64,000 nt of DNA from Haliotis rufescens (Eukaryota). Within the stretch, counting starts at the first letter, position 1. Each line of letters starts with the position of its first letter. The stretch lies in NCBI RefSeq assembly GCF_023055435.1, contig NW_025964001.1, positions 34,534,001-34,598,000 of the forward strand, read 5' to 3'. The notes below the pieces were generated by a model. It ran no database searches. It saw only the letters and a list, made by a program, of their open reading frames with translations, and had not been told where the DNA came from. Made by a program: the position numbers and the translations under genes. Shown here one piece after another: positions 1,975 through 59,460 of the stretch.

Positions 1975-2070
1975 AAATCCAGAAATTGGCTTCACATCAT
2001 ATGTCCATGTGGGAATCGAACCCTGTTTGGGTGGCAAACGCCAGCCTTACCTACTGGGCTACCCTGCAGC
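1975..2070 (-). mobile_element. diverged family A tRNA-SINE fragment
   Basis: CCAGAAATTGGCTTCACA...GGGAATCGAACCC...GGCTACCC matches family A on the minus strand. Confidence 0.65.
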
Positions 2071-2681
2071 CATACATGCGTATTGTACGCCGGGAGAATG
2101 TGTCCCATTCGGGCAATACGATTCGTACAATTGTACAATCCACCACTGATTATACTTAGCGCCCACTAACCTATGGTACAATAAATACTCAGAACGTCAG
2201 AAATACAACGTATTCGATCAACAGGAAAAATAATTTTCCACAATAACAGAATCTAGGTTGCAGGTGTAAATATCGCGAGTAAGATCTACTAACCTACAAA
2301 TAAGGCCATGTATAGGCGATATACAAAATATGACATCGTTCACTACCAGATGGTAGAACATGAGGTGATATGTCACGCGTAACTCAAGACACGTGGCCGT
2401 CAAAACAACATGGCGGCCTCGGCGGTAATCTTTTACATCCATGTTTGATAATGAAAGTCACAAGTCTCGACCTTCGTTCGTGGAGTTTCTTATTTTAAAC
2501 AGCTTTGTTGTTTATGTATGATGTGAAAAATCAGAACGATATTCCTTTCGTTGTTCTGAATGATTTCAGCGTGTCGTCCCCAGTAGGTCCATCGCGCTAC
2601 TCTATAAATGTAATGCATACAATGGATCGACAAAAACAAGAGCTATTACATATTTATCTGATTAAAAAACGACAAACACAA

Positions 2682-2742
2682 TCGCCTGTTACGGCAAGTA
2701 TGGGTTGCTGAAGACCTATCCTAACCCGGATCTTCAGGGGTC
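2682..2742 (-). mobile_element. family B retroposon, head only
   Basis: Reverse complement GACCCCTGAAGATCCGGGTTAGGATAGGTCTTCAGCAACCCATACTTGCCGTAACAGGCGA. Confidence 0.8.
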
Positions 2743-2952
2743 TGTATGTTAATGATTCAGGAGTAACCAAGTTGTTTGTTTTTACACTCTGAAAAACACA
2801 ATAACACTCAATGAGAACATATCTCCCACCACAGTGTAAAATATAACATAGAAAACCAGAACATGATAGTTCATCTAGATAGTTCAAATAGACAACATCC
2901 ACATCACATTCATCATACACTATGTATATATGCACAGATCTAACCATCATAA

Positions 2953-3122
2953 GGGGCGGTCGGGTAGTCTTGTGGTTAAAGCGTTCGCTCTTCACGCCGA
3001 AGATCCGGGTTCGATTCCCGACATGTGTACAATGTGTGAAGCCAATTTCTGGTGTCCCCCGCCGTGATATTGCTGGAATATTGTTAAAAGCGGCGTAAAA
3101 CCATACTCACTCACTCACTCAC
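2953..3122 (+). mobile_element. family A tRNA-derived SINE, full length, (CACT)n tail
   Basis: A-box-like TAGTCTTGTGG, B box GGTTCGATTCC, and TSD TAACCATCATAA at 2941-2952 and 3123-3134. Confidence 0.92.
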
Positions 3123-3729
3123 TAACCATCATAAGGATATGGTTATTTTCGTACCATTTCCATACAAATATGCATAATTAAATAAATGTTTGCTGCATGT
3201 AAATATAGCACTGGCATTACTACGTGTTAGCTTTAAATAATAGTAATCAAGATCTACACTTAGTACAGATATGGAGGATGCCAAATGATCACACTTCTTA
3301 CTGCGTGTAAAAACGTACTAAACAGATAAACCTACTTATATATTTATTACATGGAATGATGTACACACATACCAGAAGTATGGCCGCATGGCGTAGGTTT
3401 CATGTCAAACGGCTTCTTGGCTAGGGCTAATCAGTGATCAAAATACTTACTAATATGGAAATATGCTAATGATACTAAATGTAAAATACAACTTCCGTAC
3501 ACAATGATCTTACACGTGAGGACAATATTATCACATCAGTGCTACTTAAATACATATTTACAGATCTTAACATAGCAGTATCATAAAACACAATACAATA
3601 CCAAACATCCCAGCACTGTCATAAATGTCCACACATTTATTATACGTTTATCATATGCATGAAGTTTCATAAACATATAATTGCCTTTCTGGGCGAGTCA
3701 TTCATTCACTAAATCTCTCAGACCAGACC

Positions 3730-5633
3730 TACTCATTCACTCACTCTCAAACTCACTCACTCAACCACCCACTCACTCACTCACATACTCACTCACTCAC
3801 TCAACCACCCACTCACTCACTCAGCCAGCCAAACACCCATCCAGCAACCAACCCACCCAGCCACTCACTCACCAACTCACTCACTCAACCACCCACTCAA
3901 CCACTCAATCACTCAGCCAAACACCCACCAAGCAACCAACCCACTCACTCACTCAACCACCCACTCACTCACTCAGCTAGCCAAACACCGATCACGCAAC
4001 CAACCCACTCACTCACTCACTCACTCACTCTCACACTCACTCACTCAACCACCCACTCACTCACTCAGCCAGCCAAACACCGATCCAGCAACCAACCCAC
4101 TCACTCACTCACTCACTCTCACACTCACTCACTCAACCACCCACTCACTCACTCAGCCAGCCAAACACCGATCCAGCAACCAACCCACTCACTCACTCAC
4201 TCACTCTCACACTCACTCACTCACTCACTCACTCAACCACCCACTTACTCACTCAGCCAGCCAAACACCGATCCAGCAACCGACCCACTCACTCACTCAC
4301 TCATTCACTCCCTCACTATCACACTCCCTCACTCAACCACCCATTCACTCACTCACATACTCACTCACTCAACCACCCACCCACTCCCTCAGCCAGCCAA
4401 TCGCCCACCAAGCAACCAACCCACCCAGCCACTCACTCACTCACTCACTCACTCAACCACTCAACCACCCACTCACTCACTCACCCAAACACCAACCCAG
4501 GTAACCAACCCACTCACTCACTCACTCACATACTCACTCACTCAACCAAACACCCAACAAGCAACCAACCCACCCAGCCACTCACTCACTCACTCACTCA
4601 CTCAGCCAAACACCAACCCAGCAACCAACCCAGCCAGCCACCCACTCACTCACTCACTCACTCAACCACTCACTCAACCACTCAATCACTCACTCAGCCA
4701 AACTCCCACCAAGCAACCAACCCACCCAGCCACTCACTCACCAACTCACTCACTCAACCACCCACTCACTCACTCACTCACTCAGCCAAACACCCACCAA
4801 GCAACCAACCCACTCACTCACTCAACCACTCAACCACCCACTCACTCAACACCGATCACGCAACCAACCCACTCACTCACTCGCTCACTCACTCTCACAC
4901 TCACTCACTCAACCACCCACTCACTCACTCAGCCAGCCAAACACCGATCCAGCAACCAACCCACTCACTCACTCACTCACTCACTCACTCACTCTCACAC
5001 TCACTCACTCAACCACTCACTCAACCACCCACTCACTCACTCAGCCAGCCAAACACCGATCCAGCAACCGACCCACTCACTCACTCACTCATTCACTCCC
5101 TCACTCTCACACTCACTCACTCAACCACCCATTCACTCACTCACATACTCACTCACTAAACCACCCACCCACTCACTCAGCCAGCCAATCACCCACCCAG
5201 CAACCAACCCACCCAGCCACTAACTCACTCAGTCACTCACCCACTCAACCAAACAACCACCCACTCATTCACTAACTCACCCAAACACCAACCCAGGTAA
5301 CCAACCCACTCACTCACTCACTCACATACTCACTCACTCAACCAAACACCCAACAAGCAACCAACCCACCCAGCCACTCACTCACTCACTCACTCAGCCA
5401 AACACCAACCCAGCAACCAACCCAGCCAGCCACTCACTCACTCACTCAACCACTCACTCACCCACTCACTCACTCACTCAGCCAGCCAAACACCCACCCA
5501 GCAACCAACCCAGCCACTCACTCACTCAACCACTCACTCAACCACTCACTCACTCAGCCAGCCAAACACCCACCAAGCAACCAACCCAGCCAGCCACTCA
5601 CTCACTCACTCACTCACTCACTCACTCACTCAC
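3730..5633. repeat. compound (ACTC)n/(ACCA)n microsatellite-derived array
   Basis: About 1.9 kb of ACTC, ACCC, AGCC and AACC tetramers with higher-order blocks (CCAAACACCGATCCAGCAACC). Confidence 0.95.
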
Positions 5634-9487: not shown

Positions 9488-9647
9488 GAGTGGGTGAGTA
9501 TGGTTTGACGCCTCTGTTATCAATATTCCAGCAATATCATGGCGGGGGACACCAGAGGCTTCACACATTGTGCCCATGTCGAGAATCGAACCTTGGTCTT
9601 CGGCGTGACGAGCGAACGCTTTAACCACAAGGCTACCCGACCGCCCC
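9488..9647 (-). mobile_element. family A SINE
   Basis: Reverse complement of the 2953-3122 element. Confidence 0.9.
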
Positions 9648-9684
9648 AGAAGAGATGAGAGAGAGAAGAAAAAGACAGAAAGAC

Positions 9685-9736
<52 letters not shown>

Positions 9737-10299
9737 CTGAGTTAAGAGAACAGAAATAGCGAGGAGCAGAGAGAAACGAAGAGCAAAGAAGACATTAACA
9801 GAGAAGAGACGCTTGAAGAGAAACATGAACAGAGAGGATACGATAGAGAAGGAAGTGAGAATAGAGCAGGACAGGGATTAGAGATGATAATAGAGAAGGA
9901 ACAGAAAGAGACGAGACGGGGAAGAACAGCGAGACAAGAGAAGAGAAGAAGAGAAGGGAGAAGAGAACGAGAAGAAAAGAGAGTGAAGAGAAGATACACT
10001 GTTAGTAATTGAAATTCACTGTCCGCTTCCGATAGCCGGATTTCCGGATAAATGAAGCATTTTATGTAGTATATATTTCGTTCCAGGTAAATATCGTTCG
10101 GTAGGCGAGGTTTCAGGGTGTATCGGGTCCGGATAAGCTGGGTTCTACTTTATAAGGAGAGACTCGAGATTGAAGAAAGAGAGATAAAGAGGAGACAGAA
10201 AAAAACGGAAATGAGAGAGGCAGAGAGGGGAGAGACAGAGGAGGCGAGAGGGAAGAGAGAGAGAAAGTAGAGAGGGAAGAACAGATCAGGAAGGGAAGA

Positions 10300-10461
10300 G
10301 TTAGCGAGTATAATTTTACGCCGCTTTTAGAAATATTACAGCAATATCACGGCGGGGGTCACCAGAAATGGGCTTCACACATTGTACCCATGTCTGTAAT
10401 GGAACCCGGTTATTCAGCGTGACGAGCGAACGCTTTAACCACTAGGCTACCCGACCGCCCC
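10300..10461 (-). mobile_element. family A SINE
   Basis: Reverse complement of the 2953-3122 element. Confidence 0.9.
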
Positions 10462-11688
10462 AGGAAGAGAAGAGAGAAGAGCAGAGATATGAGCAGAGAG
10501 AGAATGAGAAGAGGTGTTTTGAAGGAGGAAAAGAGAGAAAGCACCCGGACAGAACACTACAAAAGAGGAGAGAAGACAAACGTACTCGAAGTCATGGATT
10601 TCTCTACATGTTCAGTGTTGTTGAGGTGTGTGTAAATAATAGATAGGTAGGCCTAAAGTACCTACGTATCAGTTATCACGGTGATGGCGTAGGCTGCTTG
10701 GCGGTCGATAACGCTGATACAAAATATTAAACTAGAAAATATGTTTCTATATTGAAATGCGCTCAGGAGTTACTGTACGCCCTGTCACTGACAAACTATT
10801 TGAAATATTCTTCTTTGTCATAATCAGGCACTGCTAACACAGACGTGTTTATTTTCGTACTTCGTGAATTTCATGAAGAGTACTGATGGCGTCTATTCCG
10901 TATATGTCACCATCAGGCCTTCATCACATATGTAATATTAATGTGCAGTAATAGCAGTACAATCTGTATAATATACTTGTGGAATTAATTTACGTTGACA
11001 TTAATCATAGTTATCAATATTGTAACAATTGCTTATGCATAACATTATTTAAGGATTGCTGTCCCTTAATCTGAAAATATGAGACAAAATTATTGATATA
11101 CTGTTCAACATTTGCTGAGGACAACACCTTTAACTAAAGGTGAATACGTTGGTTGTTAGCAAGTGTTGAGTAGTATAATTCAAATCAGCAAATACAATCT
11201 CACGAAATATATTACGACTTGGTCGTATTACATTATACTTTGGCAGATACGTTTTACGTATTTCCTGGATATTGTGGACTTTCGAGATATACATGGTACT
11301 CATCTTCTTTGTTTTTATTGCTGCAGTATAAACATAATTGTATTTCTGTTTTTTAAAATCTAATCTGAGTTATGACCATTGTATTTTATTCATATGAGAT
11401 GACTTTCTGATAAGCCTTAATTCTGAATATTAATTTATACAGTTGGGTTGACTTAATTCACGGTATCATTTTTGTTCATATGTCTTAACATCGAAGTTTG
11501 AAAATCCTCAAAAATATATATCTGTTACCGACGTCATATGCAGACCAGGCATGACCAAAGCCACAATTAAATACCAAATTGTGTGTTACAGAAACCTAGT
11601 TATTGCCTTCCGCACAGAGTTGTTTCAGTAATGCTTAACAATGTTTAGAGAATCTTGATGAAGGCTGTCTAATAAACCCTATCCAGTA

Positions 11689-11872: not shown

Positions 11873-12713
11873 TTTTATTGTAATGGCTAGTATATCACCT
11901 ACGTCGCAAACCTATCTGTATAATATATTTTACCCGTCAGAATAACTATTCGTTTGTTAATTTTCTGATGTGATAAACAATATCAGCCTTGGTGATCAAC
12001 TTCAGCTCAGTCATCGTTAGTACTTATCCAGTTCATCCAAAGAAGGTTATTAATATACAAGATATTATTTCCAGATATATCTATCAGTCAGACATATCCT
12101 ACCAACTCAATCATAACTGCATTCCTAATCTTTGTTCACGGTTTAACCTTATCTGTTTATAGTTAATGGAATTGACTTTAAGATGCATGTGATCACACTG
12201 AGCTCTATCACCCCGCAATCCTACTGTTCAATCAGCCAACAATCCTGTGTTCTATCATCCCACAATCTTCCGAAATGTTGTGCGACAGTTCGGCATTGAC
12301 GAAAACTCCCCCGCACAGCCACTAACGCCAATATGATAAGTCGTGTGAATGTTAACGACAGTCTGAACTCCTCACATCGTCGATATGTCTTCATAAAAAT
12401 GTGACGTTATTCCTATGTTGTTTTGATTGCTTTTCAATTTGTCCATTATCATGTTTTACAGCCCTATAGTTTTCTAGCGCCATTTCCCAGTAATCATTTT
12501 AGAGGATCATTTCATTACAATCTGAAAAAGGATATTATCGGAACGATTAGTTTTAATATTTTAAGAACGACCCTGTTTATCGCTGGACTCCCACGTGCTG
12601 TCTATAAATGGTATCTCTGACATTCGAAAACGAGGCACTAAAAAAAGACACAGGTATTTGTAGGTCGCGTCCTACTATTTCACAAGGGCACGACACAGAT
12701 ATCATACTCACCA

Positions 12714-12982
12714 ATTAAGGTCCTGGTTAAAATAGGTCTTCAGCAACCCATGTTTGCTGTAAAAGGCGACTATGCTTGTTGTAAGAGGCGACTAACGGGA
12801 TCGGGTGGTCATGCTCGCTGACTTGTTTGATACATGTCATCATATCCAATTTGCGTGGATCGATACTCATAATATCAATCACTGGATTGTCTGGTCCAGA
12901 CTCTATTATTTACAGACCGCCGTCATATAGATGTAGTATTGCTGAGTGCGGCGTTAAACAACTAACAAACAAAAACAAACAA
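12714..12982 (+). mobile_element. family B retroposon
   Basis: GGTCTTCAGCAACCCATG...GTAAGAGGCGACTAACGGGATC...GCGGCGTTAAAC plus (CAAA)n. Confidence 0.9.
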
Positions 12983-13202: not shown

Positions 13203-13435
13203 GTCCCGTGAAGATTGGGCCATAATTGGTCTTCACTCCCTATGCTTGATGTAAGGACCGAGTAACGAAATCGGGTGGTCAGACTCGCTGACTTGGTTGA
13301 TGAATGACGTCGAATCCCAAATGCGTAATTCGATGCTCAATCACAGGATTATCTCGTCCAGATTCGATTATTTACAGACCGCCGTCATAGAGGTGGAATA
13401 TTGTTGAGTGCGGCGTTAAACAAGAAACAAACAAA
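13203..13435 (+). mobile_element. family B retroposon (older, diverged)
   Basis: Same head, body and tail with more substitutions. Confidence 0.85.
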
Positions 13436-15407: not shown

Positions 15408-15689
15408 GTTTTGTTTGTTTGTTTGTTTGTTTGTTTGTTGTTTAACGCCGCACTCAGCAATATTCCAGCTATATGACGGCGGTTTGTAAATAGTCAAGTC
15501 TGGACTAGACAATCCAGTGATTGATATCATGAGCATCGATCCACGCAATTGGGATCAATGACATGCATCAACCAAGTCAGCGAGCCTCACCACCCGATCC
15601 CGTTAGTCGCCTCTTATAACAAGCATAGTCGCCTTTTACAGCAGGCATGGGTGGCTGAAGGCCTATTCTACCCCGGATCTTCACGGGTC
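15408..15689 (-). mobile_element. family B retroposon, full length
   Basis: Starts GACCCGTGAAGATCC. Flanks CTGGTTAGG and CTGGCTAGG are a probable TSD. Confidence 0.92.
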
Positions 15690-16543: not shown

Positions 16544-16716
16544 CAGAAACCTATGATCGTGGGTTTGAATCCCGGTTCGCCCCGATCATGTTTCTAGGTT
16601 TGTCAGCAACATACCCGTGCTCGTGGGTTTAGAACTAAGTGGTAAACTTCTCAGGCCTGCACCACTTCAGGCTTTCCTCCCACATGAATCTGTCACGCCG
16701 TGATATATAACTGGCA

Positions 16717-17133
16717 TATAGAGAATCTCACCCTCGTGTCTTTTGATATCAAATATATCAACACGAGTTGATAAAAGTGGAAAAACTCCGAGGCATGCCA
16801 AGGAGTTTTCCCACTTTTATCAACGAGTGTTGATATATTTGATATCAAAAGACACGAGGGTGAGATTTTATTTATCATCCAACATCATTCTTCCAATTTT
16901 TTCAGTTTGAAGACAGTAATAAGCAGTGTCTTAAGTGTAAAACTTCAGTAGTAGAGTCATTAGTGATGTCATTTGATTGTGGCGCCATGCTAACCAATGA
17001 CATCACAATGGTCTGCAAAGTATTGTGATGCAATTTCATTGCAGCGATATCTACAGATATCGTGTAGATATGTAGATATTGCTTGATCTCACCCAAGCGA
17101 TATCTCCTGTGGGAGCTAGTTTTGGGTGATAAA
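16717..17133. mobile_element. non-autonomous DNA element with long internal palindrome (Crypton-like architecture)
   Basis: ~145-bp near-perfect hairpin at 16725-16868, TTTATCATCCAA/TTGGGTGATAAA inverted pair, and a second copy at 54290-54640. Confidence 0.75.
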
Positions 17134-21005: not shown

Positions 21006-22056
21006 CATAATGATGATACTAATGTTTGATTAACATTGTTAATTGAAGACACAGGAATAACATAGGATGTGTTTTACAGCAATGTCAAATCACTATCATA
21101 TAGTTTCCCCAATACCTAACCTTAAGATTATATTAATAACACAGACACGTTATTTTCTCTTCTCAGGTCAATGACCTGATATTTACCACGCACCAGCTCT
21201 TGTTCAGCTGATACTGGCAACTGCATCCCCAAGTGTTCCAGCACCAGCCTAACGATATCCGCACATACCTAGGAGCCCTAACTGACGCCCAGTCTCCGAA
21301 AATATATAATTTTGATAGAAACAAGCAGCTACATTTAAATTAAAAAAGAGCCAATGTGATGCGAGTTGAACCTGTGCTAAAGTCTAGACTTGCTTCAGTT
21401 AGGATTATAACATTACGGTAAGGGCTGGTCGAAAAGGAAAAAAATGTGGTTGAGGAGACTATGCAACAGACTACCAGGAACCCGTGGGATCCTCTTTTTA
21501 CCGGCCCCCTCCCGTAATAGCGCTGGTCTCCCTCGCTCATGGCTCTGGACCCCACATGTAGGGGTGGGGGTCATGCAGCCCTTTGCCCCGGTCCCTGACT
21601 ATATCAAGTGGAGAAGACCCACCCCTACATGATGGATAGGCATTTGTGGAGTCTTGCTGGGGGTTTGACATGAAGATGTGTATGTTATCAACGGGAAACC
21701 GTCGATCTCTGGTAATAGACTCGTAATAGTAAGGCCATAAGAAATATTATCATTTTCGTCGTGGTCTTTTATCATATGCGAGGATCTTTTGTTGTTAGAA
21801 ATGACACATTATTTGAGGACATAGATAAAAATGTATCAAAAAGTAGTTATATTTCCCAACTTATTTCATGCCTTGAACTAATACTCGATACATTTGTATC
21901 TCATTTGCGTGTAATCCAATAATGTACGCATCAATGGATAGATGCTTCATTTGTGTGTATGTGTGTACTGTGTGCGTGCGTACATGCGTGCGTGCGGATG
22001 GAGTTGGTGCTCTCTCTCTCTCTCTCGCTCTCTCTCTCGCTCTCTCTCTCTCTCTC

Positions 22057-22219
22057 GGGGCGGCGAGGAAGCTTAGTCGTTAAAGCGTTGGCTCGTCACG
22101 ACGAAGGCCGGGTTCGATTCCCGACATGGGTACAATGTGTAAAGCCCATTTCTGGTGTCCCCCGCCGTGATATTGCTGGAATATTGCTCAAAGCGGCGAA
22201 AACCATACTCACTCACTCA

Positions 22220-22220
<1 letters not shown>
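22057..22220 (+). mobile_element. family A SINE inserted in (CT)n
   Basis: Full head-to-tail match with (CT)n on both flanks. Confidence 0.92.
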
Positions 22221-22268
<48 letters not shown>

Positions 22269-22967: not shown

Positions 22968-23049
22968 AGTATATATATGATGAATAGGACTCACGTAATA
23001 TAACAAATAGGTAATAGTGTAGTTAAACAATATAAATTTATATTTTTCA

Positions 23050-23272
23050 TAAAAGGCGTCTGTGCTTGTCGGAAGAGGCGACTAACGGGATCGGGTGGTC
23101 AGGATCGCTGACTTGGTTGATGTATGTCATCGTATCCCAATTGCGTGGATCGATGCCCATGATATCAAACACTGGACTGTCTGGTCCAGACTCGATTATT
23201 ACAGACCGTCGTCATATAACCGGAATATTGCTGAGTGCGGCGTTAAGCAACAAACAAACAAAGAAACAAACA
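23050..23272 (+). mobile_element. family B retroposon, 5'-truncated
   Basis: Body and tail match other family B copies. Confidence 0.9.
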
Positions 23273-30699: not shown

Positions 30700-31158
30700 T
30701 CTCTGTTTTCAAACTTGGAATTGTACAGGTATTGCCACTGGTGTGTCTGTCCTATCTTAGATCGTTAGTTAGTGAACACAATATTGATATATGTGGCTTA
30801 AGTGAGCATTGGTTCTTTGATAAGGACCTGGGCCAACTTGCAGAAAGCGATCTTAGCGCTACGACTAGTGTAAGCCTATGTTAAAAAATGGGAGTTACGA
30901 TCATCTTAGCGCTAAGATCGCTTTGTGCAAGTGGGCCCTGGACTTTCTTGATTCTATCGACACAAAACATATTGCGTATGGTATTTGTGATGTTGACAAG
31001 ACACCCTTATCTAGGAAAGTAGGCAGGCAAAGGCGGCGTTGCCATACCTCAGCAACGAAGGTTTGATAACTTTGTTGATATTATTAACTTGACAGACGAT
31101 GGAGTTGTCGGAATTGGCTGGGGTTTGTTTAACAAGAAAAATCATCCAAGTGCATCTT

Positions 31159-33480: not shown

Positions 33481-33756
33481 GTTTTGTTTTGTTTTGTTTG
33501 TTTGTTGTTTAACGCCGCACTCAGCAATGTTCCTGCTATATGACGGCGGTCTGTAAATAATCAAGTTTGGACCAGACAATCCAGTGATTGACATCATGAG
33601 CATCGATCCACGCAATTTGGAAACGATGACATGCATCAACACAGTCAGCGAGCCTGACCACCCGATCCCGTTAGTCGCCTCTCACGACAAGCATTGACGC
33701 CTGTTACGGCAAGCATGGTTGCTGAAGGCTTATTCTGACCCGTATCTTCACGGGTC
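33481..33756 (-). mobile_element. family B retroposon, full length
   Basis: Starts GACCCGTGAAGAT, with (C)TGATGT on both flanks. Confidence 0.92.
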
Positions 33757-38253: not shown

Positions 38254-38493
38254 TGTTTGTTTGTTGTTTAACGCCGCACTCAGTAATATTCCAGCTATAT
38301 GATGTCGGTCTGTACATAATCGAGTCTGGACCAGACAATTCAGTGATTAATATCATGAGCATCGATCCATGCAATTGGGATCGATGACATGCATCAAACA
38401 AGTCAGCGAACCTGACCACCCGATCCCGTTTGTCGCCTTTCACGGCAAGCATGGGTTGCTGAAAACCTATTCTACCCAGGATCTTCACGGGTC
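38254..38493 (-). mobile_element. family B retroposon (single-hairpin head variant)
   Basis: Starts GACCCGTGAAGATCC and has the (CAAA)n tail. Confidence 0.92.
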
Positions 38494-39035: not shown

Positions 39036-39150
39036 TTACGTCGCTTTAAGCAATATTCTAGCAATATGACAGCGAAAGACACCATGAAATGGCTTCACAG
39101 ATTGTGACCAGATGGGAAATTTAATCCTGGCTTACGGCGTGGCAAACCAA
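39036..39150 (-). mobile_element. family A SINE tail, body and B box, contiguous with the 57-bp array
   Basis: TTTACGTCGCTTTAAGCAATATT...GGCTTCACA...GGGAAATTTAATCC. Confidence 0.75.
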
Positions 39151-42100
39151 CACTTTAAACACAAGGCCAGTCCTACAACTACCCTGTGAAGAGGGGTGAC
39201 CAACCAACACTTTTAACACTAGACCAGTCCTACAACTACTTTGTGAAGAGGGGTTACCAAACAGCACTTTTAACACCAAACCAGTCCTACAACTATCTTG
39301 TGAAGAGGGGTGACCAAACAGCACTTTTAACACTAGGTCCCCCCAACAAATACCTTGTGATGAGGTGTGACAAACCAACACTTTAAACACCAGACCAGTC
39401 CTAAAACTACCTTGTGAAGAGGTGTGACCAACCAACACTTTTAACACTCGACCAGTCCTACAACTACCTTGTGGTGAGGTGTGACCAACCAACACTTTTA
39501 ACACTCGACCAGTCCAACAACTACCTTGTGAAGATGGGTGACCAACCAACACTTTTAACACTAGGTCCCCCCAACAAATACCTTGTGATGAGGTGTGACA
39601 AACCAACACTTTAAACACCAGACCAGTCCTAAAACTACCTTGTGAAGAGGTGTGACCAACCAACACTTTTAACACTCGACCAGTCCTACAACTACCTTGT
39701 GGTGAGGTGTGACAAACCAACGCTTTTAACACTAGGCCAGTCCAACAACTACTTTGTGAAGAGGGGTGACCAACCAACACTTTTAACACTAGACCAGGCC
39801 AACAATTACCTTGTGAAGATGGGTCACAAACCAACACTTTTAACACTAGACCAGTCCTACAACTGCCTTGTGAAGAGGGGTGACCAACCAACACTTTTAA
39901 CACTAGCCCAGGCCAACAACTACTTTGTGAAGAGGGGTGACCAAACAACACTTTAAACACAAGGCCAGTCCAACAACTACCTTGTGAAGAGTGGTGACCA
40001 ACCAACACTTTTAACACTAGACCAGTCCTACAACTACCTTGTGAAGAGGGGTGACCAAACAACACTTTAAACACAAGGCCAGTCCAACAACTACCTTGTG
40101 AAGAGTGGTGACCAACCAACACTTTTAACACTAGACCAGTCCTACAACTAGTTTGTGAAGAGGGGTGACCAACCAACACTTTTAACACTAGACCATTCCT
40201 ACAACTACTTTGTGAAGAGGAGTAACAAACAAACACTTTAAATACAAGGCCAGTCCAACAACTACCTTGTGAAGAGGGGTGACCAACCAACACTTTTAAC
40301 ACTAGACCATTCCTACAACTACTTTGTGAAGAGGAGTAACAAACAAACACTTTAAACACAAGGCCAGTCCAACAACTACCTTGTGAAGAGGGGTGACCAA
40401 CCAACACTTTTAACACTAGACCATTCCTACAACTACTTTGTGAAGAGGAGTAACAAACAAACACTTTAAATACAAGGCCAGTCCAACAACTACCTTGTGA
40501 AGAGGGGTGACCAACCAACACTTTTAACACTAGACCATTCCTACAACTACTTTGTGAAGAGGAGTAACAAACAAACACTTTAAACACAAGGCCAGTCCAA
40601 CAACTACCTTGTGAAGAGGGGTGACCAACCAACACTTTTAACACTAGACCAGTCCTACAACTAGTTTGTGAAGAGGGGTGACCAACCAACACTTTTAACA
40701 CTAGACCAGTCCTACAACTACTTTGTGAAGAGGAGTAACAAACAAACACTTTAACACAGGGCAATTCCAAGACCTACCTGATGACGAAGTGTGACAAACT
40801 AACACTTTTAACACTAGGCCAGTCCCAACCTACCTTTTGAAGGGGTGTGACAAAGCCAGCACTTCAAACATGAGGTCACCCCAACAAATACCTTGTGGTG
40901 AGGTGTGACAAACCAACGCTTTTAGCACTAGGCCAGTCCAACAATTACCTTGTGAAGATGGGTCACAAACCAACACTTTAACACCAGACCAGTCCTACAA
41001 CTACCTTGTGAAGAGGGGTGACCAACCAACACTTTTAACACTAGACCAGTCCAACAACTACTTTGTGAAGAGGCATGACCAACCAACACTTTTAACACTC
41101 AACCAGTCCTACAACTGCCTTGTGAAGAGGGGTGACCAACCAACACTTTTAACACTAGACCAGTCCATCAACTACTTTGTGAAGAGGGGTGACCAACCAA
41201 CACTTTTAACACTAGGCCAATCCAACAACTGCCTTGTGAAGAGGGGTGACCAACCAACACTTTTAACACTCAACCAGTCCTACAACTGCCTTGTGAAGAG
41301 GTGTGACCAACCAACACTTTTAACACTAGACCAGTCCATCAACTACTTTGTGAAGAGGGGTGACCAACCAACACTTTTAACACTCAACCAGTCCTACAAC
41401 TGCCTTGTGAAGAGTGGTGACCAACCAACACCTTTAACACTAGACCAGTCCAACAACTACCTTGTGAAGAGGGGTGACCAACCAACACTTTTAACACTAG
41501 ACCAGTCCTACAACTACTTTGTGAAGAGGGGTGACCAAACAGCACTTTTAACACCAGACCAGTCCAACAACTACCTTGTGAAGAGTGGTGACCAACCAAC
41601 ACTTTTAACACTAGACCAGTCCTACAACTGCCTTGTGAAGAGTGGTGACCAACCAACACTTTTAACACTAGACCAGTCCAACAACTACCTTGTGAAGATG
41701 GGTGACCAACCAACACTTTTAACACTAGACCAGTCCTACAACTACTTTGTGAAGAGGGGTGACCAAACAACACTTTAAACACAAGGCCAGTCCAACAACT
41801 ACCTTGTGAAGAGGGGTGACCAACCAACACTTTTAACACTAGACCAGTCCTACAACTAGTTTGTGAAGTGGGGTGACCAACCAACACTTTTAACACTAGA
41901 CCAGTCCTACAACTACTTTGTGAAGAGGAGTAACAAACAAACACTTTAACACAGGGCCACTCCAAGACCTACCTGATGACGAAGTGTGACAAACTAACAC
42001 TTTTAACACTAGGCCAGTCCCAACCTACCTTTTGAAGGGGTGTGACAAAGCCAGCACTTCAAACATTAGGCCACCTAACACATACCCCATAAAGACGAGT

Positions 42101-42320
42101 GACAAACTAACACTTTTAAGGCTAGACTATTTCAAAACCTTCTTTGAGCAGACGTGACAAACACACACTTTTAACATTAGGGCACTCCAGCACCTACCTG
42201 GTGAAGGGGCGTGTCAAACCAACTCTTCATACATTAGGCCACCCAACAATACCCTATGAAAGGCGTGACAAACTAGTACTTCAAACACTAAAAACACCCC
42301 GTGAAGAGGCGTGATGTGAC
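39146..42320. repeat. 57-bp minisatellite, ~56 units with higher-order duplications
   Basis: Unit GTGACCAACCAACACTTTTAACACTAGACCAGTCCTACAACTACCTTGTGAAGAGGG. Units diverge towards 42320. Confidence 0.97.
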
Positions 42321-43039: not shown

Positions 43040-43890
43040 TACAAATGTGTTTGGGGGCGAGAGAATAGATGTGTGTGTTTGGGAGAAAGAATTGATGTGT
43101 ATGTTTGGGAGAGAGAATAGAGGTGTGTGTGTTTGGGAGAGAGAATAGAGGCGTGTGTGTTTGGGAGAGAGAATAGAGGCGTGTGAGTTTGGGAGAGAGA
43201 ATAGAGGCGTGTGTGTTTGGGGGCGAGAGAACTGATGTGTGTGTTTTGGAGAGAGAAAATATGTGTGTGTTGGAGAGAGAATTGATGTGTGTGTTTGGGA
43301 GAGAGAATAGAGGCGTGTGTGTTTGGAAAAGAGAATAGAGGCGTGTGTGTTTGGGAGAGAGAATAGAGGCGTGTGTGTTTGGGAGAGAGAATAGATGTGT
43401 GTGTGTTTGGGAGAGAGAATAGATGTGTGCGTGTGTTTGGGAGTGAGAATAGATGTGTGTGTGTGTTTGGGAGAGAGAATAGATGTGTGTGTGTGTGTGT
43501 GTGTGTTTGGAAGAGAGAATATGTGTGTGTGTGTTTGGGAGTGAGAATAGATGTGTGTGTGTGTGTTTGGAAGAGAGAATATGTGTGTGTGTGTTTGGAG
43601 GAGAGAATATGTGTGTGTGTGTTTGGGAGAGAGGATAGATGTGTGTGTGTGTGTGTTTGGAAGAGAGAATATGTGTGTGTGTGTTTGGGAGTGAGAATAG
43701 ATGTGTGTGTGTGTGTTTGGAAGAGAATATGTGTGTGTGTGTTTGGGAGTGAGAATAGATGTGTGTGTGTTTGTTTGGGAGAGAGAATAGATGTGTGTGT
43801 GTGTGTTTGGGAAAGAGAATAGATGTGTGTATGTGTGTGTGTGTTTAGGAGAGAGAATAGATGTGTGTGTGTGTGTGTTTGGGAGAGACA
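43040..43890. repeat. compound (GT)n-TTGGGAGAGAGAATAGA minisatellite
   Basis: Variable-length units of about 25-45 bp. Confidence 0.95.
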
Positions 43891-44815
43891 CACACACATG
43901 TGTAATTTCACCCAATCTTCTTACAAACCGACAGCCCAACATCAATGGTAATATGCTCCTTCCGTCATGCTAAACACGCTAAATTGATTTTCGCAATGTT
44001 CTCATAACCTAAACAAATATTAATTGACCGTGTCTTTCCTTTTTGTTTAACTCTGTTATTATTATTCATATTTAGGATAATACGACTTAAAGGGCTGTTA
44101 ACAGGACGTTTATGACGCCATGTTCCAGACGTTTTACGTCAAACAACGTAGTATATTCTACCGTGAGTTATGACACTGCTCATGATAAACACTTATGTCG
44201 GGAACCGGATGTGAGATAATGCATCAATTTTCTGTGATTTATCGTTGTTTTACACAGCTTTGTGGATTGTATGTTTTTCTTGGGTGGTAGAGCACGAGAG
44301 GAAGATACGCTCACGTAGACACTATATGTTTTAGCGTCGAGACCTTCAAAGTAAATTACATGATTCTCTCAGGGCTTCCTCTCAACAACTGTTTATTCGT
44401 TTTCTCCTCAAAATCTGACAACCGTTATTTTCTACGCCCTTTTACGCTAAGCTGCAACAAAAACATATTTACGACACTGGCACTCTTTCTTAAAGAAAAC
44501 AGAAGTATTATGTATTGTCGTTTTTGGCGAAATAGCTGTATTTCTATCACTGAAAACGTGTTTTTTGTCTGGAAGTGTTTTGATGAGAGTTCGGTGGGGG
44601 GCTCAGAGTGCTTACTGCATGCAAGAAGATTTTGTTGCATGTAGCCATAATATGTCGTGTTGACAGTTATTCATCAGTTTAATTCTAGATATTACAACAT
44701 AGATAGACCGTTACACTAATAAAGTCTATATTCTCTCCCATATATATATCTTTTGTTTCTCCTCAATGAAACGTCCACATGGTAACTGAGGCAAATGAAC
44801 CTCTTTAACCATTAA

Positions 44816-44980
44816 GGGGTGGTAGGGTAATTTAGTTGTTAAAGAGTTCGCTTGATGAACTGAAGTCCCGAGTTCGATTCCCCACATGGGTACAATGTGT
44901 AAAGCTCATTTTATGGTGTCCTCCGCCGTTATATTGCTGGAATATTGCCAAAAGCGGCGTGAAAACCACTCACATACACT
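44816..44980 (+). mobile_element. family A SINE (diverged)
   Basis: B box GTTCGATTCC, body and tail. Confidence 0.85.
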
Positions 44981-45251: not shown

Positions 45252-45515
45252 GACCCGTGAAGAGCCGGGGTAGTATAGGTCTTCAGCAACCCATGCTTGC
45301 CATAAAAGGCGACTGTGGTTGTCGTAAGAGGTGACTAACGGGATCGGGTGGTCAGTCTTGCTGACTTGGTTGATGCATGTCATCGATCCCAATTACGTGG
45401 ATGGATGGTCATGATGTCAATCACTGGATTGTCTGGTCCAGACTCGATTATTTACAGACCGCCGTCATATAGCTGGAATATTGCTGAGTGCGGCGTTAAA
45501 CAACAACAAACAAAT
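45252..45515 (+). mobile_element. family B retroposon, full length
   Basis: Starts GACCCGTGAAGA and has the shared tail plus (CAA/CAAA)n. Confidence 0.92.
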
Positions 45516-49050: not shown

Positions 49051-50399
49051 CTGAAAGGCGGAGCAGAACACTTCTTTCAAAACAATTTTTTTTCAGGACA
49101 TGAATGTATGTCCAGGGAACAAATGTTTTGTCTGTAAAACCTGACGGATGAATATTAATTTCTGGTATTTTCTGAAACATTTTTTTCCAAAACAACGTCT
49201 AGTCCTAGACTGGAAACGAGCTACAAGTTTGAGCATACGGTCCTAACGAATTAGTAGTGCTATGGATCTCTGCTCTCCAGGCCATCGTAGCAGATGTTGG
49301 CATGAATGGAGCTGGTGTAGTCTCGGTAAACAACGCGAGATGAGAGACAATCAATGCGAGCATCTGCAGGGACCCATGGTCAGCGATATGTATATACTTG
49401 TTCCATTTGTGTTTAAAAGGCTCTCCAGAGATGCCGTCATAAAGCGTTTCTTTGAAGGTCAAGGTCTTCCTACATACCTCGAACAAGGTTAATATCGCAG
49501 CGGAATTTGAAAGAATTCTTGTCAATAACTAAGGGGCCTATCATTTCAATATTCTTGGGGATGAAGGAGAGAACATGAATGTTAGTGAGACAGATTTCAA
49601 AACAATTTTATTCATGTAATCTGGCATGCCTAGTCCAAAAAATATTTTTTCATTGTTTTCGGGAGAAAATTATTTTTTTCAAAAACATACCAGGCCCATC
49701 CGAGAATATCTAATGGTCCCAACAGAGCAAGACGTGATACTGCATAACTTGTTTATTCTATAACCTAATAACAGATGCAGTGACATTGCATGTTTCTTAA
49801 AGTGGAACTTCACAATAGATATGGTTAAAAATATGACTTGTTTTGCCCTTTTCTTTCATTAACTCAACTTCCAAACCCTTACATGGATTGCAGGTAGAGG
49901 ATCAGTATGTACCTAGAGATAACAAGTCATTACAGCTGTACAAAACGTTACCACCGATACCACATATACCAGATACCGAAGGATTCGAACCAAGCAGCAG
50001 GCCAAGAAGACCCAAACCTGTTGAGATCCGGTCTCCCTGTTCCATGGAACCCCTCAGTCTTTTGACCGTTTGACCAGCGGTCACTCCAAGATTACACACA
50101 CTAAGACGCGACTGGAGAGAAATTGTTTGTCCATCGGTCACCTCAACGCCACACAACGCGGTCAGAAAAAAACGATGCCGGTCATTGAAACTGGCACTCC
50201 TGCTGATACACGCAGCCGCCCAGGCGCAAGTAGCTAGGAATTAGAAATTATGGCCTCGGCTCCTGTCTAGTAGCGCCTCGTTGAACAGATTTCGTCGTGA
50301 TTTTATTTGGTCCTTGACCATTCTGACCACCGGTCATTTCAAGTTCCCACAAGTAGCTTCCGTATTTTCTCCGTACCTCTTTAGTCAGCACTGCCTGTG

Positions 50400-51292: not shown

Positions 51293-51420
51293 GTCACGCC
51301 GAAGACCCGGGTTCGATTCCGGACATGGGTGCAATGTGTGAAGCCCATTTCTGGTGTCCTCCGCCTTGATATTGCTGGAATATTGATTAAGCGGCGTAAA
51401 ACCATACTCAAGCACTCACT
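51293..51420 (+). mobile_element. family A SINE, 5'-truncated, inserted into or beside an older minus-strand copy
   Basis: TTATTCCC(C)GAG on both flanks. Diverged minus-strand pieces at 51130-51250 and 51445-51532. Confidence 0.85.
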
Positions 51421-51670
51421 CTCCCAATCACTCTTTATTCCCGAGGGTACACCAAGAATGGGTTTTAAACATTAGACCCACGAGGGAAATCAAACCTGGG
51501 TGACCAGCTAACTCTATAACCACAAGGCTACCTTCCTGAATCCGATCAGCGAAGCCACGTGCACAGAAAACCTACTGATACTTATTGCGCACAGCGAGGG
51601 TATGAATATACACAAGCAGACAGTTGTTGCAGGGGCAAGACCAAAGCTACGAAAATAAACATCTTTTCTG

Positions 51671-51778
51671 GTCCTCTTTTCACAAAGCGATCTTAGCGCT
51701 ATGACTCTCGTAAGTCGATGTTAAACCATGGGAGTTACGATAGTCTTAAGGTTAAGATTTTTTTTGTGGCACTAGGCC
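51671..51778. mobile_element. 107-bp MITE family copy (diverged)
   Basis: CACAAAGCGATCTTAGCGCT...GGGAGTTACGA. Confidence 0.8.
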
Positions 51779-52865: not shown

Positions 52866-53110
52866 AGATCCTGGATAGAATGGGTCTTCAGCAACCCATG
52901 CTTGCCGTAAAAAAACAACTATGGATGTCTGAAGAGGCGACTAACGGGGCTCGCTGACTTCGATAGTGCATTTCATCGTATCCCAATTGCGTGGATCGAT
53001 GCTTATGATGTAAATCACTGGATTGCGTGGTCCAGACTCGATTATTTACAGACCGCCGTCATATAGCTGGAATATTGCTGAGTATGGCGTTAAACAACAA
53101 CAAACAAACT
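52866..53110 (+). mobile_element. family B retroposon (diverged)
   Basis: Head, body and tail match. Confidence 0.88.
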
Positions 53111-54074: not shown

Positions 54075-54289
54075 GTATTATTTTGGATTGAAAATTCATT
54101 AACTGGAGCTTTTAGTCTTCAACGAAGGGATGGGGTCGTTGGTGGGGAAGTGGGATGGGTTCGCCGTGGTAGTTGAGACCCCCTGTGCCCCACGGATGCG
54201 CCCATGGACGATGCACATTAAACGGTTGGTGTCGGGATTAAGGTGGTTAGATGGATTTTACAGAAGTAGAAGTCTATTTGCTGTATAAA

Positions 54290-54640
54290 TAGAGAATCTC
54301 ACCCGAGTGTCTTTTGATATTAAATATATCAACGAGTGTTGATATATTTGGTATCAAAAGACACGAGGATGAGATTTTATTTATCATCCAACATCATTCT
54401 CCCATTTTTTCAGTTTGTAGGCAGTAATAAGCAGCGTCTTAAGTGTAAAAAGTACTGCTTACAGCTTCAGTAGCAGAGCCATTAGTGATGTCATTTGATT
54501 GTGTCGTCATGTAACCAATGACGTCACAATGGTCTGCAAAGCATTGTGATGTAATTTCATTGCGGCGATATCTACAGTGTAGATATTGCTTGATCTCAAC
54601 CAAGCGATATCTCCCGTGGGAGCCAGTTTTGGACGATAAA
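54290..54640. mobile_element. second copy of the palindrome-bearing element (hairpin partly deleted)
   Basis: Colinear with 16717-17133. Confidence 0.85.
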
Positions 54641-56293
54641 TGTTAGTTATATTATCCATATAAGCGGATTAAAGCCTCGAGACGAAAACAACACTGTATC
54701 ACCCCAATCCGGCCCCACCCGTTCTACAAACACGTTGACAAGATGCAATTCGTGTCGAGCTGTTTAAAAGTTCACATCATGATGATAATAATGATTACAT
54801 TTTTATTGCCTCCCAAATGTCTACACGCAAGTTTGTGAATTTAAATAAGCGTACAAAGCTAAGTGTATGCAATTGTAATATCATAACCACGAGGTTACAA
54901 TTATCCGTCCCTTTTATTGATGTTACCATTAAGTCGAGCCAGCTGCCTTGCACTTCATGCGTAAACAAAGAAACGAAGTAACTCCCGCTTCAATGAAATT
55001 GTAGCGATGTTAAGATTATGAAACATGATATTGTTTGCATACGGCGCTTAACCCATGACCTTTGTGTGTTCTTGCAAAAAGCATTAGCTTGATGCTGTTT
55101 AATTGTCATCAGCTACACAGAGTGTGCTGGGGTACTGCGTCAAAAGACATATGTTCTCGACATGCGTTGTAACAAACTTGTTTTCTTCAGGTTTATTTTC
55201 GAAGTCTCGACATTCGAGTTTTCTCAAATGGCTCAAGTGTGGCTCAAATGACGCGCCGACATATCGACATCACATGCTTGTCAGGGATATCGTTCTACAG
55301 CTATAAAAACCAGAACGTCTTCAAGATGTTGTGCTTGACTGAGTTGAGCCAGCACTCTGCGATAGAGGCGTTTGAAGTGCGCCTTTCACCTTTTGTATAT
55401 TTGAGATTGTAGGTTCGAACTAATTTCTCTTATGCTGTTTACTTTAACGTCGCTTTCGATAATATTCAAGCTCCACCAGTGAGCATGATGAAAGCATGGA
55501 AATTAATAAATGTTTAGTGACGTGTCGTATATCCTTGGGACAGCCGGGCGTTAAAACAAATATTTTTGAAATTAGGGTCGTATCGGAAGTAACCAGATGA
55601 ATCCCTTAATAAAGATCAAATTACCAGTTCTAGTAAGCAGTCACAGAGGTAATACCCTAACGATCTCACAAATCATTGGGACTTTGGGAAACGTTCTGCG
55701 CACACTTCGGCCAGCTTGAATGTATGCGCTAGATTCTTGTTTCCAAACTTTGTCCCATTTCCCCCTGGCCTTTCATTGTCTGTATTGAAATTACTGCTCA
55801 GGGTCTTCTCTTTCCGCAGATACCATACCTTTAGGGGTTTTAGACATATTGGCCTTGAAGTGTAAGAATAACTTTGAAAAATCACCGAAAATTTAGATTT
55901 AACGAACATCCTTCAAACGGCTAAAAAGTCATTAGTTTGGTAGTTTTGATTCATTTTAGGGATACTCTCGAATGCACGTGTGTCAGAGATTTCCATATAT
56001 CTTTAACACATGGTATGGTTTCCAAAGAGGTCACGTGACCAGCCTCCAATGCATTATGGTCGGAAATTACGATTAAACCCGGTATAAACCCCCAGCCTTA
56101 GGCGAATAGACATTCAGCTTTAATTCTTTAGGAACATATACAATCCTTCATCCCGAGATTTATGTAGGTTATTTTAAAATTACTCATTGTCATTTTAAGA
56201 AAGGAACGGAAGAAACAGGCACGATATGTCATCCCTAAAACGACACCATTGTCCACGTAAGCAGAAACCATTGCTGACGTAATACAAGCTCAA

Positions 56294-57172: not shown

Positions 57173-57445
57173 GACTCGTGTGAGCCGGGGTAGAATAGCT
57201 CTTCAGCAACCCATGCTTGCCGCAAAAGGCGACTATGCTTGTCGTAAAAGGCGTCTAACGGGATCGGGTTGTCAGGCTCGCTGACTTGGTTGATGCATGT
57301 CATCGATCCCAATTGTGTGGATCGATGCTCATGATATCAATCACTGGATTGTCTGGTCAAGTCTCGATTATTTACAGACCGCCGTCATATAGCTGGAATA
57401 TTGCTGAGTGCGGCGTAAACCAACCAACCAACCAACCAACCAACC
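57173..57445 (+). mobile_element. family B retroposon, full length, (CAAC)n tail
   Basis: TSD CTCCCGTCTCT on both sides. Confidence 0.92.
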
Positions 57446-57610: not shown

Positions 57611-57815
57611 GACCCGTGAAGACCCGGTCTTCAACAACCCATACTTGCTGTAAAAGGCGACTATGCTTGTCGTAAGAGGCAACTAACGGGATCGGGTGGT
57701 CAGGCTCGCTGACTTGGTTGATGCATGTTATTGTATGCCAGATTCGATTATTTACAGACCGCCGTCATATAGCTGAGTATTGCTGAGTGCGGCGTTACAC
57801 AACAAACAAACAAAC
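57611..57815 (+). mobile_element. family B retroposon with internal deletions
   Basis: TSD CATTATCCACCC, starts GACCCGTGAAGA. Confidence 0.9.
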
Positions 57816-57829
57816 ATTATCCACCCGTC

Positions 57830-59460
57830 TTTAACCACCTCATCCCTACCCTTTTGCCAACAATCCTATCCCCATCTTATCCCGTTTCTTTTCATCTCGC
57901 CCATTTTGTACCCATCTCTTTCCATTTCGTTCTCATCAACTACCAACTTTTACCATCCTCCACACGTCTCTGGTTTCTCTATCTATCACTTCCCATGCTC
58001 TTGTCATTCCCGTTCTGTGCCTATCTTTACCTGTTCTACACCCATCTCTTCCCATTCTCATGTCATTCCCATTCTCTGCCTGTCTTTACCAATTCTACAC
58101 CCATCTCTTCCCATTCTCTCGTCATTCCCGTTCTCTGCCTTTCTTTACCAATTCTACACACATCTCTTCCCATTCTATTGTCATTCCCGTTCTTCGCCTA
58201 TCTTTACCTATTCTACACCCATCTCTTCCAATCCTGTAGTCATTCCCGTTCTCTGCCTGTATTCTGACCCATTCTACACCCATCTCTTCCCCTTCTCTTT
58301 TCATTCTCTGCCTGTCGCCACCGATCTCTGCTCACCTCTTCCCATTCTCTCCCTGTCGCCACCCATAATCTACTCATTCTCCTCAATCTATCTACCCATT
58401 TTTTTCCATAATCTACCCATTCTAGCCATTCTCTACCAATTTCTTCCCATCTCTCTCTAAACATCTCTTTCCATTCTCTGACCATCTCTTCCCATTCTCT
58501 ATATAACTATTTGTACCCTCTATCCATGTCTTCCCATCCACTACACATCTCTTCCTGTTCTCTATCCAACCTCTACCTATCTACTTCTATCTCTGTCCAT
58601 CTCTACCCACATTCTACCCATCTCTTCCTGTTCTCTTTCCAACCTCTACCCATCTCTTCCCAACCTCTACCCATCTCTTCTCCATTCTCTACCCATCTCT
58701 TCCTGTTCATTATCCAACCTCTACCCATCTCTTCCCATCTCCTCCCCATCTATTCCTGTTCTCTATTCAACCTCTACCAATCACTTTCCATCTCTTCTCA
58801 TCTCCTCGCCCATCTCTTCCTGTTCTTTATCCAACCTCTATCCATCTCTTCCCATCTTCTCCCCATCCATTCCTGTTCTGTATCCAACCTCTACCCATCT
58901 CTTCCCATCTTCTAACCATCTCTTCCTGTTCTCTATTCAACCTCTACCAATCACTTTCCATCTCTTCTCATCTCCTCGCCCATCCCTTCCTGTTCTTTAT
59001 CCAACCTCTATCCATCTCTTCCCATCTTCTCCCCATCCATTCCTGTTCTGTATCCAACCTCTACCCATCTCTTCCCATCTTCTAACCATCTCTTCCTGTT
59101 CTCTATTCAACCTCTACCAATCACTTTCCATCTCTTCTCATCTCCTCGCCCATCTCTTCCTGTTCTGTTTCCAACCTCTACCCATCTCTTCCCATTTTCT
59201 ATCCATCTCTTCCCATCCTCTACCCATCTCTTCCTGTTCTTTATACAACCTCTATCCATCTCTACCCGTCCTCTCAACCCCTCTCTTTCTCTTCTCTTTT
59301 CATCATCTACCCTTTTCTTCCCATAATCCCCAAACCTCTACCCATGTCTCATCCAAATTTCTACTTATCTGTTCCCATCCTATACCGCTTTCTCCACATT
59401 ACTAGTATCTTCCACCCTCTACCCATCTGTTCTACCTATCCTGTGCCTACCCTTTACCCA
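57830..59460. repeat. pyrimidine-rich degenerate tandem repeats (CTCTACCCATCTCTTCC motifs)
   Basis: Strong strand asymmetry and internal duplications. Confidence 0.9.

Follow-up and report, generated by a model that had tools for sequence, protein, structure and literature searches.

Flavivirus exoribonuclease-resistant RNAs (xrRNAs) leave short non-coding 3′ RNAs, HDV-like ribozymes cut at the 5′ ends of the retrotransposons R2, RTE and L1Tc, mouse L1 carries tandem promoter monomers, and in the TSS, the 3′ CITE of turnip crinkle virus, which binds 60S/80S and stimulates translation, psi2 closes 3′ of H5. An xrRNA is characterized by an in vitro block of Xrn1 that leaves a decay intermediate and by a ring of 15-16 nt round its 5′ strand. 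As reported, xrRNAs occupy the beginning of viral 3′ UTRs, frequently as tandem copies, depend on a pseudoknot and halt Xrn1 at the foot of the first stem (PMC8374639, PMC11702639). In the coremin xrRNA, likewise of viral 3′ UTRs, the 5′ pseudoknot is of H-type, its 1-nt L1 is irreplaceable and a further hairpin is required (PMC10321173). According to a 2021 review, xrRNAs have so far been described from viruses, with cellular ones still to be found (PMC8374639).

Among retroposons, 255-bp LP-SINEs with target site duplications (TSDs) have been described from abalones, oysters and Littorina; their first ~70 bp match the 5′ ends of the elements Nimb-17_LMi, I-3_DR and RTE-9_CPB, which carry this LP head together with the pectinoid MESC SINEs (Matetovici et al., 2016, PMC4758252). 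A promoter was proposed for the LP head and a parallel with the promoter/ribozyme of L1Tc was noted, the available portion of that report containing neither an RNA structure nor viruses (PMC4758252); the available portion of a survey of bivalve SINEs makes no mention of LP-SINEs (PMC11481361).

Family B of the red abalone Haliotis rufescens, a retroposon of 240-265 nt with TSDs and a head that is not tRNA-derived, was analysed starting from a window of 64,000 nt (contig NW_025964001.1, positions 34,534,001 to 34,598,000, forward strand; window positions count from its first letter). Judged by description, length and head homology, family B is most probably Hdi_LP/Hmi_LP or an orthologue, because the published LP-SINE agrees with it in length (255 bp in Suppl. 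Table 2), TSDs, terminal short repeats and a tail common with another SINE, and the scallop head (Suppl. Fig. S2) has family B's hairpin word GATCG/GTCG-TAAGAGG-CGAC-TAA, with stems that match by eye (GCAGGTA:TACCTGC; CCC:GGG; CCCAT:ATGGG) (PMC4758252). The family-B head also stands on LINE-like loci (L077, with APE and RT, L067, L109 and L299). Both this SINE family and its head's homology to LINEs were known before, without any structure; the double-pseudoknot fold, its covariation and its occurrence in viruses are new, neither fold nor viral occurrence being described, motif letters included, in Rfam 15 and the searchable literature, with subscription journals, Repbase reports and preprint supplements outside reach.

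The copy in focus (45252-45515, + strand) is a full family-B copy of the LP-SINE type, belonging to the duplicated-hairpin subfamily. Its head is followed by a body (45343-45458), with a B-box-like word, GATCGATGC, near +150 in 6/10 copies, by a tail of LINE 3′-end type (45459-45501) common to family B and the tRNA-derived SINE family A of the window, and by terminal (CAA/CAAA)n repeats (45502-45515). The copy is non-coding, lies among simple repeats and is decayed, with a G-G mismatch in a helix, AGTATA in place of AGAATA and further changes that weaken the fold; a TSD was looked for and none found. With this copy as blastn query the window yields 11 family-B copies, as the initial annotation had counted, and the eight starts listed there are all GACCCG-like. 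TSDs with 0-2 mismatches flank five of nine window copies examined, which bears out the earlier observation of several: 15422-15689 (−, 12 bp, 2 mismatches), 57173-57435 (+, perfect 11 bp), 33493-33756 (−, 6-7 bp), 12709-12973 (+, 13 bp, 2 mismatches, 5′ end decayed) and 57611-57814 (+, perfect 12 bp, with internal deletions in the copy). The others recognized by blastn are single-hairpin forms at 38254-38493 (−) and, diverged, 13203-13435 (+), a 5′-truncated copy at 23048-23266 (+), a copy without its first ~9 nt at 52866-53108 (+) and a head-only fragment at 2669-2742 (−).

In the whole H. rufescens genome the 25-nt head has 9,669 exact matches versus none for its reversed control. TSDs of 9-25 bp were found in 32 of 78 copies holding head and tail, part of these loci being chosen on the head so that full starts are favoured, and in 0/78 mismatched flank pairs; 19 of the 32 TSDs end exactly before the first base, G1, and 25 within 1 nt of it. 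Of 49 copies not pattern-selected on their first bases, 76% have G1 and 88% have A2, with random-looking positions upstream. The absence of tRNA A and B boxes from the head, proposed before, was confirmed for the first 110 nt in 10/10 copies, and ARAGORN calls no tRNA on family B; with Rfam negative as well, membership in the tRNA-, 5S- or 7SL-derived SINEs is not indicated. A search for an autonomous partner LINE, covering 20 of 137 reverse transcriptase matches in the genome with 10 kb each, gave none with the head at its 5′ end and none with the family-B tail.

Family A, with a canonical B box, occupies 2941-3123, 9488-9701, 10254-10509, 22010-22224, 44806-44973 and 51293-51421 of the window. 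Long tandem arrays extend over 64-1312, 3731-5633, 39145-42127, 43046-43834 and 57985-59274, with periods of 18, 4/16, 57, 28 and 21-170 nt, the last being C/T-rich with two family-B copies at its edge. MITE-like short palindromic repeats, self-complementary over 115-160 nt, lie at 16716-16875 and 30827-30941, with related copies at 51678, 52142, 54289-54649 and 61192, and ARAGORN calls a tRNA-Pro(TGG) at 49970-50052 (−), which may be a pseudogene or chance.

None of the runs recorded as RNA is listed as containing the stretch. Three small-RNA runs have 2-103 reads each on the element, a number too small for locating a start, mostly one antisense, U-initial species of ~31 nt in the body (45424-45454; 63 molecules in run X22 and 9 in X23), with no pile-up at G1; this species may reflect piRNA-like silencing of family B.

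Based on comparative sequence analysis, the head is predicted to form two stacked H-type pseudoknots with an invariant side hairpin. From the 5′ end the layout comprises the first strand of stem S1 (3-6 bp), a single U, the first strand of S2 (7 bp), S1′, a variable insert, the word AGAAU(A/U) and S2′, followed by P3 (3-5 bp, G-C then Y-G) with a loop strand, a U, the hairpin P4 (GUCG-UAAGAGG-CGAC), UAA and a strand pairing with the P3 loop. In the focal copy, on the + strand throughout, the 5′ strand of S1 at 45252-45257 is the element's 5′ end, located by covariation and TSD mapping (CCCG at 45254-45257 has its partner at 45266-45269, and other variants extend S1 to as much as 6 bp), and is followed by L1, the single U at 45258, invariant in 27/27 representatives. 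The covarying 5′ strand of S2 (45259-45265), of fixed 7-bp length and here with the one G-G mismatch, leads to the covarying S1 3′ strand with its spacer (45266-45271), to the conserved L3 word (45272-45277, AGUAUA here) and to the covarying 3′ strand of S2 (45278-45284), which ends pseudoknot 1. The P3 hairpin at 45285-45297 pairs AGC (45285-45287) with GCU (45295-45297), and its loop CCC (45290-45292) is the 5′ strand of pseudoknot 2. A first, variant copy of P4 (45299-45313), belonging to a 22-nt tandem duplication, precedes P4 itself with UAA (45321-45338), which is sequence-invariant with one C>U in this copy, and the covarying strand CGGG (45339-45342) closes pseudoknot 2.

Among 28 representatives, one per family or virus (mean stem identity 48%), S2 forms 165/196 pairs versus 112.8 with swapped partners, S1 126/168 versus 109.2 and P3 78/84 versus 59.6, and pseudoknot 2 scores 300 versus 250.6, each at P<0.001 (5e-5 to 2.5e-4). 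A 22-member set at <=70% identity still supports all four (P<=0.004). A pairing-optimised parse served as the basis for manual assignment of the stem registers, a procedure that favours S1 and S2; given an equal register search for the swapped partners, S2 forms 180/196 pairs versus 147.8. Related families are not fully independent in these statistics, and two mis-registered rows kept in the count lower it. MAFFT-aligned sequences pair to 88.2% in the 3′ half versus 75.9% when shuffled (0/500 shuffles), far above slid controls. Pseudoknot 2 reaches P=0.07 among the six viral copies alone and is weak in family B itself, with 3 bp plus 1-2. P4 and AGAAU were partly fixed by the search patterns, and the pairing of P4 has no covariation support because its sequence never varies; relaxed viral scans for altered P4 stems or loops gave only seven viruses and one diverged tandem copy, the other hits being by eye without upstream stems, and 40 of these other hits, scored with the model, gave only two weak scores. 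Other families accommodate as much as ~60 nt of inserted sequence behind the S1 3′ strand.

Within the H. rufescens genome two pairs of S2 have switched jointly between subfamilies, from G-C in the older to A-U in the present one. GG in S2 occurs in ~37 loci among the first 100 matches listed, 24 of them with CC (collapsed by hand), and AA combined with CC has 25 matches in the entire genome. Because these paired changes separate subfamilies, the structure has been maintained over the SINE's own history.

These results uphold the earlier description of the head as a conserved structured RNA that is not tRNA-derived. The proposed helix (T)GAAGATC:GGTCTTC(A) is present and corresponds to the covarying S2, and so is the GTCG-TAAGAGG-CGAC hairpin, tandemly duplicated in 9/11 window copies. 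The compensatory changes across the 28 families support two stacked pseudoknots, other than the one proposed in the initial annotation: pairing of the loop GGGT with downstream AACCC scores 261 versus 260.1 swapped (P=0.47) and that of the 5′ end with CGGGT 258 versus 258.6 (P=0.54), both in the 28 families. Instead, the loop Gs pair with the 5′-terminal CCCG, and ACCC pairs with the GGG after UAA. The 5′-3′ pairing appears in the focal copy's minimum-energy fold and could compete with the supported fold; single-sequence folding misses the knot and is mostly no better than shuffles (z of -1.15, 0.13, -0.77, -2.87 and -0.14). Rfam, a check recommended in that annotation, matched no known RNA over the module, whether in the window, in the focal region or in 16 loci homologous to it, where the only hits were microsatellite-driven miRNA entries.

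With regard to its boundary, the retroposon starts at the foot of S1, its first base preceding the invariant U by 4-6 nt. Representatives prefer no base at -6/-5 (G6 T7 C7 A7), a first-base G at -6 or -7 occurs in several families, and a metagenome family of 53 copies has none. Five related copies with 17, 19, 30, 30 and 74 nt between the U and AGAATA have an identical start, a boundary defined by homology and not by TSDs. The start tracks the first stem and not the conserved words, because this distance varies from 17 to 74 nt at one start. TSD mapping in other families succeeded for 7/42 heads versus 1/42 in the control. In one family two complete, diverged heads stand in two insertions with different flanks; as both heads were transmitted, the inner one is not efficiently cut off. 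In head duplications of the H. rufescens genome the sequence returns to G1/A2 from numerous positions (~14-70) and no one site stands out, which is consistent with a template that physically ends at G1 and with the absence of one particular internal cut. Head arrays had raised the suspicion of cleavage at the foot of P4; this was rejected, since the junctions are broad with peaks at micro-homology (the first 100, 100 and all 41 matches listed).

Head-only minisatellites are abundant in the genome (loci L402-L413, units of 36-61 nt, up to ~60 copies; for example C46:5983000-5988500, C79:26408500-26412000 and C223:65311500-65317500). They begin at the first base of the element and the rest of one element usually comes after, and one head-duplication junction pattern alone has 424 matches. 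They are likely to stem from re-priming by reverse transcriptase with subsequent expansion at the DNA level.

The module extends well beyond abalones. An 18-nt hairpin word has five matches in 2.9 million viral contigs, all five with the whole upstream architecture, and further viral scans raise the count to six contigs of RNA-virus type plus a single DNA virus contig of 212 kb. An RdRp is present in four viral contigs (L033/L304, L035, L161/L303 and L201/L305) and only an RNA-virus-type capsid in two (L032/L034 and L031/L301), and the capsids include tombus-like ones; L032 and L034 are the same UTR from two independent datasets. In all six the module lies in sense orientation in the 3′ UTR, 14-119 nt short of the contig end and with AGAATA 25-221 nt behind the last stop codon, and L301 and L305 carry a second, diverged copy in tandem. 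The 6.1-kb contig L301, which has no recognised polymerase, also holds a 1,217-codon ORF without Pfam match (255-3905, −) after an S-domain capsid gene. In the DNA virus a lone module without SINE body or tail (L160:2480-2550) sits between two same-strand genes, downstream of a NAD-dependent DNA ligase gene. Metagenomes contain at least 120 stretches with the module, mostly of one family, and it heads many short elements of the TSD/tail type as well as LINE-like loci such as L077 (APE-RT ORF of 1,023 codons), where the first long ORF begins 304-554 nt downstream. In L043, L096, L100 and ~80 related metagenome loci a tRNA-like stretch whose B box is degenerate comes after the module, the arrangement of the pectinoid MESC SINEs; ARAGORN calls no tRNA in 11 loci tried of this family.

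In 596 Gb of prokaryote genomes the seven matches (L294-L300) all resemble pieces of eukaryotic retroposons and are probably contamination from host or soil eukaryotes, given their microsatellite tails, contig-end positions and a zinc-knuckle ORF; 50,697 phage records gave no match. The occurrence in RNA viruses together with the conserved pairing shows that the module acts as RNA, in effect a functional RNA exchanged between retroposons and unrelated viruses. Because identical invariant bases occur with unrelated polymerases, we infer that its function is either self-contained or exerted through a conserved eukaryotic host factor.

On analysis of these data the favoured reading, to which we assign a probability of roughly 0.45, is that the head module (~65-90 nt) is a candidate xrRNA which resists Xrn1/2 and carves a defined 5′ end from read-through transcripts. 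A SINE copy would be transcribed inside a host Pol II transcript, in an intron or beyond the poly(A) site, and Xrn1 or Xrn2 would degrade this transcript from the 5′ side and stall at the knot. Here the loop of the invariant hairpin P4 would dock on AGAAU, closing a ring round the U linker, as suggested by the fixed 7-bp S2 that separates AGAAU from the root of P4. The protected RNA would begin at G1 and could be inserted by target-primed reverse transcription through a LINE reverse transcriptase that recognises the common tail, while viruses would obtain a short non-coding 3′ RNA from the same block. Under this proposal the element would need no promoter of its own, because the exonuclease block on the host transcript would set its start. 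A pseudoknot does lie at the presumed protected 5′ end, with covarying S1 and S2 and the 5′ end at the base of S1; the single start despite the variable distance to AGAATA would fit a physical block rather than a promoter measuring from conserved words; and the near-absence from prokaryotes fits a eukaryote-specific function. Against this reading, plain H-type frameshift pseudoknots fail to stall Xrn1 (PMC10321173), the fold agrees in detail with no xrRNA class and has no Rfam hit, and the first-base G of several families is also explicable by a cap or a ribozyme G+1.

That the head layout matches the ribosome-binding TSS just as well as an xrRNA is the starting point of a rival reading, on balance unlikely, in which the module binds the ribosome or a translation factor, serving cap-independent translation in viruses and LINEs and, in SINEs, keeping the RNA on ribosomes to capture LINE protein, with the 5′ end set otherwise. 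The order of elements is that of the turnip crinkle virus TSS, with two coaxial pseudoknots and a third hairpin (PMC5336357, PMC5712577), the module stands in 3′ UTRs of uncapped-type viruses, some with tombus-like capsids, its invariant loop sequences suggest a conserved host partner, and its absence from prokaryotes is as expected. By itself, however, ribosome binding leaves the exact retroposon start at the first stem unexplained; the module has ~65 nt versus ~100 nt for the TSS and no upstream five-A tract, and in LINE-like loci the first long ORF follows only after 304-554 nt. A direct role with the element's own polymerase, the viral RdRp at the 3′ end and the LINE reverse transcriptase at the 5′ junction, would draw on the binding of RdRp by the TSS (PMC5336357) and on the frequent re-priming of reverse transcriptase inside the head after reaching G1. 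It is highly improbable, as RdRP_3, RdRP_4 and LINE reverse transcriptases are unrelated and hardly likely to call for identical invariant bases, and the module also sits between genes of a large DNA virus.

The fixed start calls for a mechanism, as the initial annotation argued, and its suggestion of self-cleavage is the part that has become less likely, because no boundary base is conserved and complete tandem heads are inherited together. A new ribozyme cutting at or just before the first stem would account for the sharp 5′ end, the compact double pseudoknot with invariant single-stranded bases and the first-position G of several families; the 3′ half may also be seen as resembling the HDV order P1-P2-P4-J4/2 without P3/L3, and linear RNA viruses do carry ribozymes in UTRs (PMC13725137). 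Yet neither a base nor a pair is conserved at the 5′ boundary, where insertions adjoin, efficient cutting would prevent the joint transmission of tandem heads and would sever viral 3′ ends, the junctions of head duplications are spread over ~14-70 without a single site, and no hammerhead, twister or HDV-like pattern (descriptors run without positive control) or Rfam hit was obtained, so that we regard this explanation as improbable. Equally improbable is the published proposal of an internal Pol II (or III) promoter derived from a LINE, perhaps with an additional RNA role like Pr77 of L1Tc (Matetovici et al., 2016, PMC4758252). The LP head replaces or precedes tRNA heads, tandem promoter monomers have a precedent in mouse L1, the first-base G of family B could be a copied cap and the body has its B-box-like word in 6/10 copies. 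What is conserved, however, is base pairing, and RNA viruses without a DNA stage retain the module, which a pure DNA promoter fails to explain; moreover, the distance from start to conserved word is not kept, the head lacks A and B boxes and the 53-copy metagenome family lacks the first-base G.

Returning to exonuclease resistance, an undescribed exoribonuclease-resistant (or self-processing) RNA, mobile among LINEs, SINEs, RNA viruses and a large DNA virus and able to free promoterless retroposons from host read-through transcripts by means of cellular decay enzymes, falls a little short of an even chance. If true, cellular RNA would thereby gain its first xrRNA, and retrotransposons a third means of defining the 5′ end besides promoters and ribozymes, which bears on how SINEs without Pol III boxes and many LINEs obtain a fixed 5′ end. 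Depending on which rival holds, the head would represent an xrRNA class not seen before, a ribosome-binding element of minimal size or a novel ribozyme.

As compared with the described systems, the head was assigned to no known class, because in detail it departs from every xrRNA class, from the TSS and from the ribozyme classes tried. The earlier statement that it fits no known ribozyme core stands upon pattern checks and Rfam: the core words CUGANGA..GAAA of hammerhead, the order UAA..GC..CCC..GC..GGG of twister and AAA..GCG of pistol occur in 0, 0 and 1 of 10 window copies with negative Rfam E-value scans, and a descriptor for the HDV-like nested double pseudoknot with G+1, in the order P1(6-7 bp)-P2-P3-L3-P1.1-P4-J4/2 and run without positive control, has no hit in 12 representatives and the focal copy, again with no Rfam hit. 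With the HDV-like 5′ ribozymes of R2, RTE and L1Tc/ingi (Pr77) the head shares a module of ~70 nt whose conservation among otherwise unrelated LINEs is confined to their 5′ extremity (PMC4758252), as well as a hairpin followed by CUAA and a closing pseudoknot strand; it differs in lacking P3/L3/P1.1 and a fixed G+1, in the pairing of the C of CUAA within P4 and in the survival of tandem copies. The resemblance to the TSS of turnip crinkle virus covers three hairpins and two coaxial H-type pseudoknots in the same order in a viral 3′ UTR (PMC5336357, PMC5712577), whereas the third hairpin of the head is much smaller, its conserved bases differ, it stands at retroposon 5′ ends, and the upstream five-adenylate tract, which stabilises the first pseudoknot of the TSS, is absent at -10 to -5 in 27 representatives.

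Unlike class 1/2 (flavivirus) xrRNAs, which combine a three-way junction with a 5′-end pseudoknot and a base triple, the head has no three-way junction, the supported fold being two H-type pseudoknots without Rfam match, and unlike class 3 xrRNAs (Tombusviridae/Solemoviridae) it has no P1-P2 stem-loop topology, no L2B hairpin in an apical loop and no AGY motif (PMC8374639, PMC11702639). From the coremin xrRNA it deviates in stem lengths of 4-6 and 7 bp versus about 3 and 3, in the hp1 YGAD loop and CUAC spacer, which are absent from its alignment (PMC10321173), and in having a second pseudoknot, a sequence-invariant hairpin and an occurrence in cellular retroposons. In common with the coremin xrRNA (xrRNA-C/xrRNA-WCC) the head possesses a 5′-terminal H-type pseudoknot, a 1-nt L1 and a downstream hairpin (PMC10321173), and on analysis it is an xrRNA that the head would work most like.
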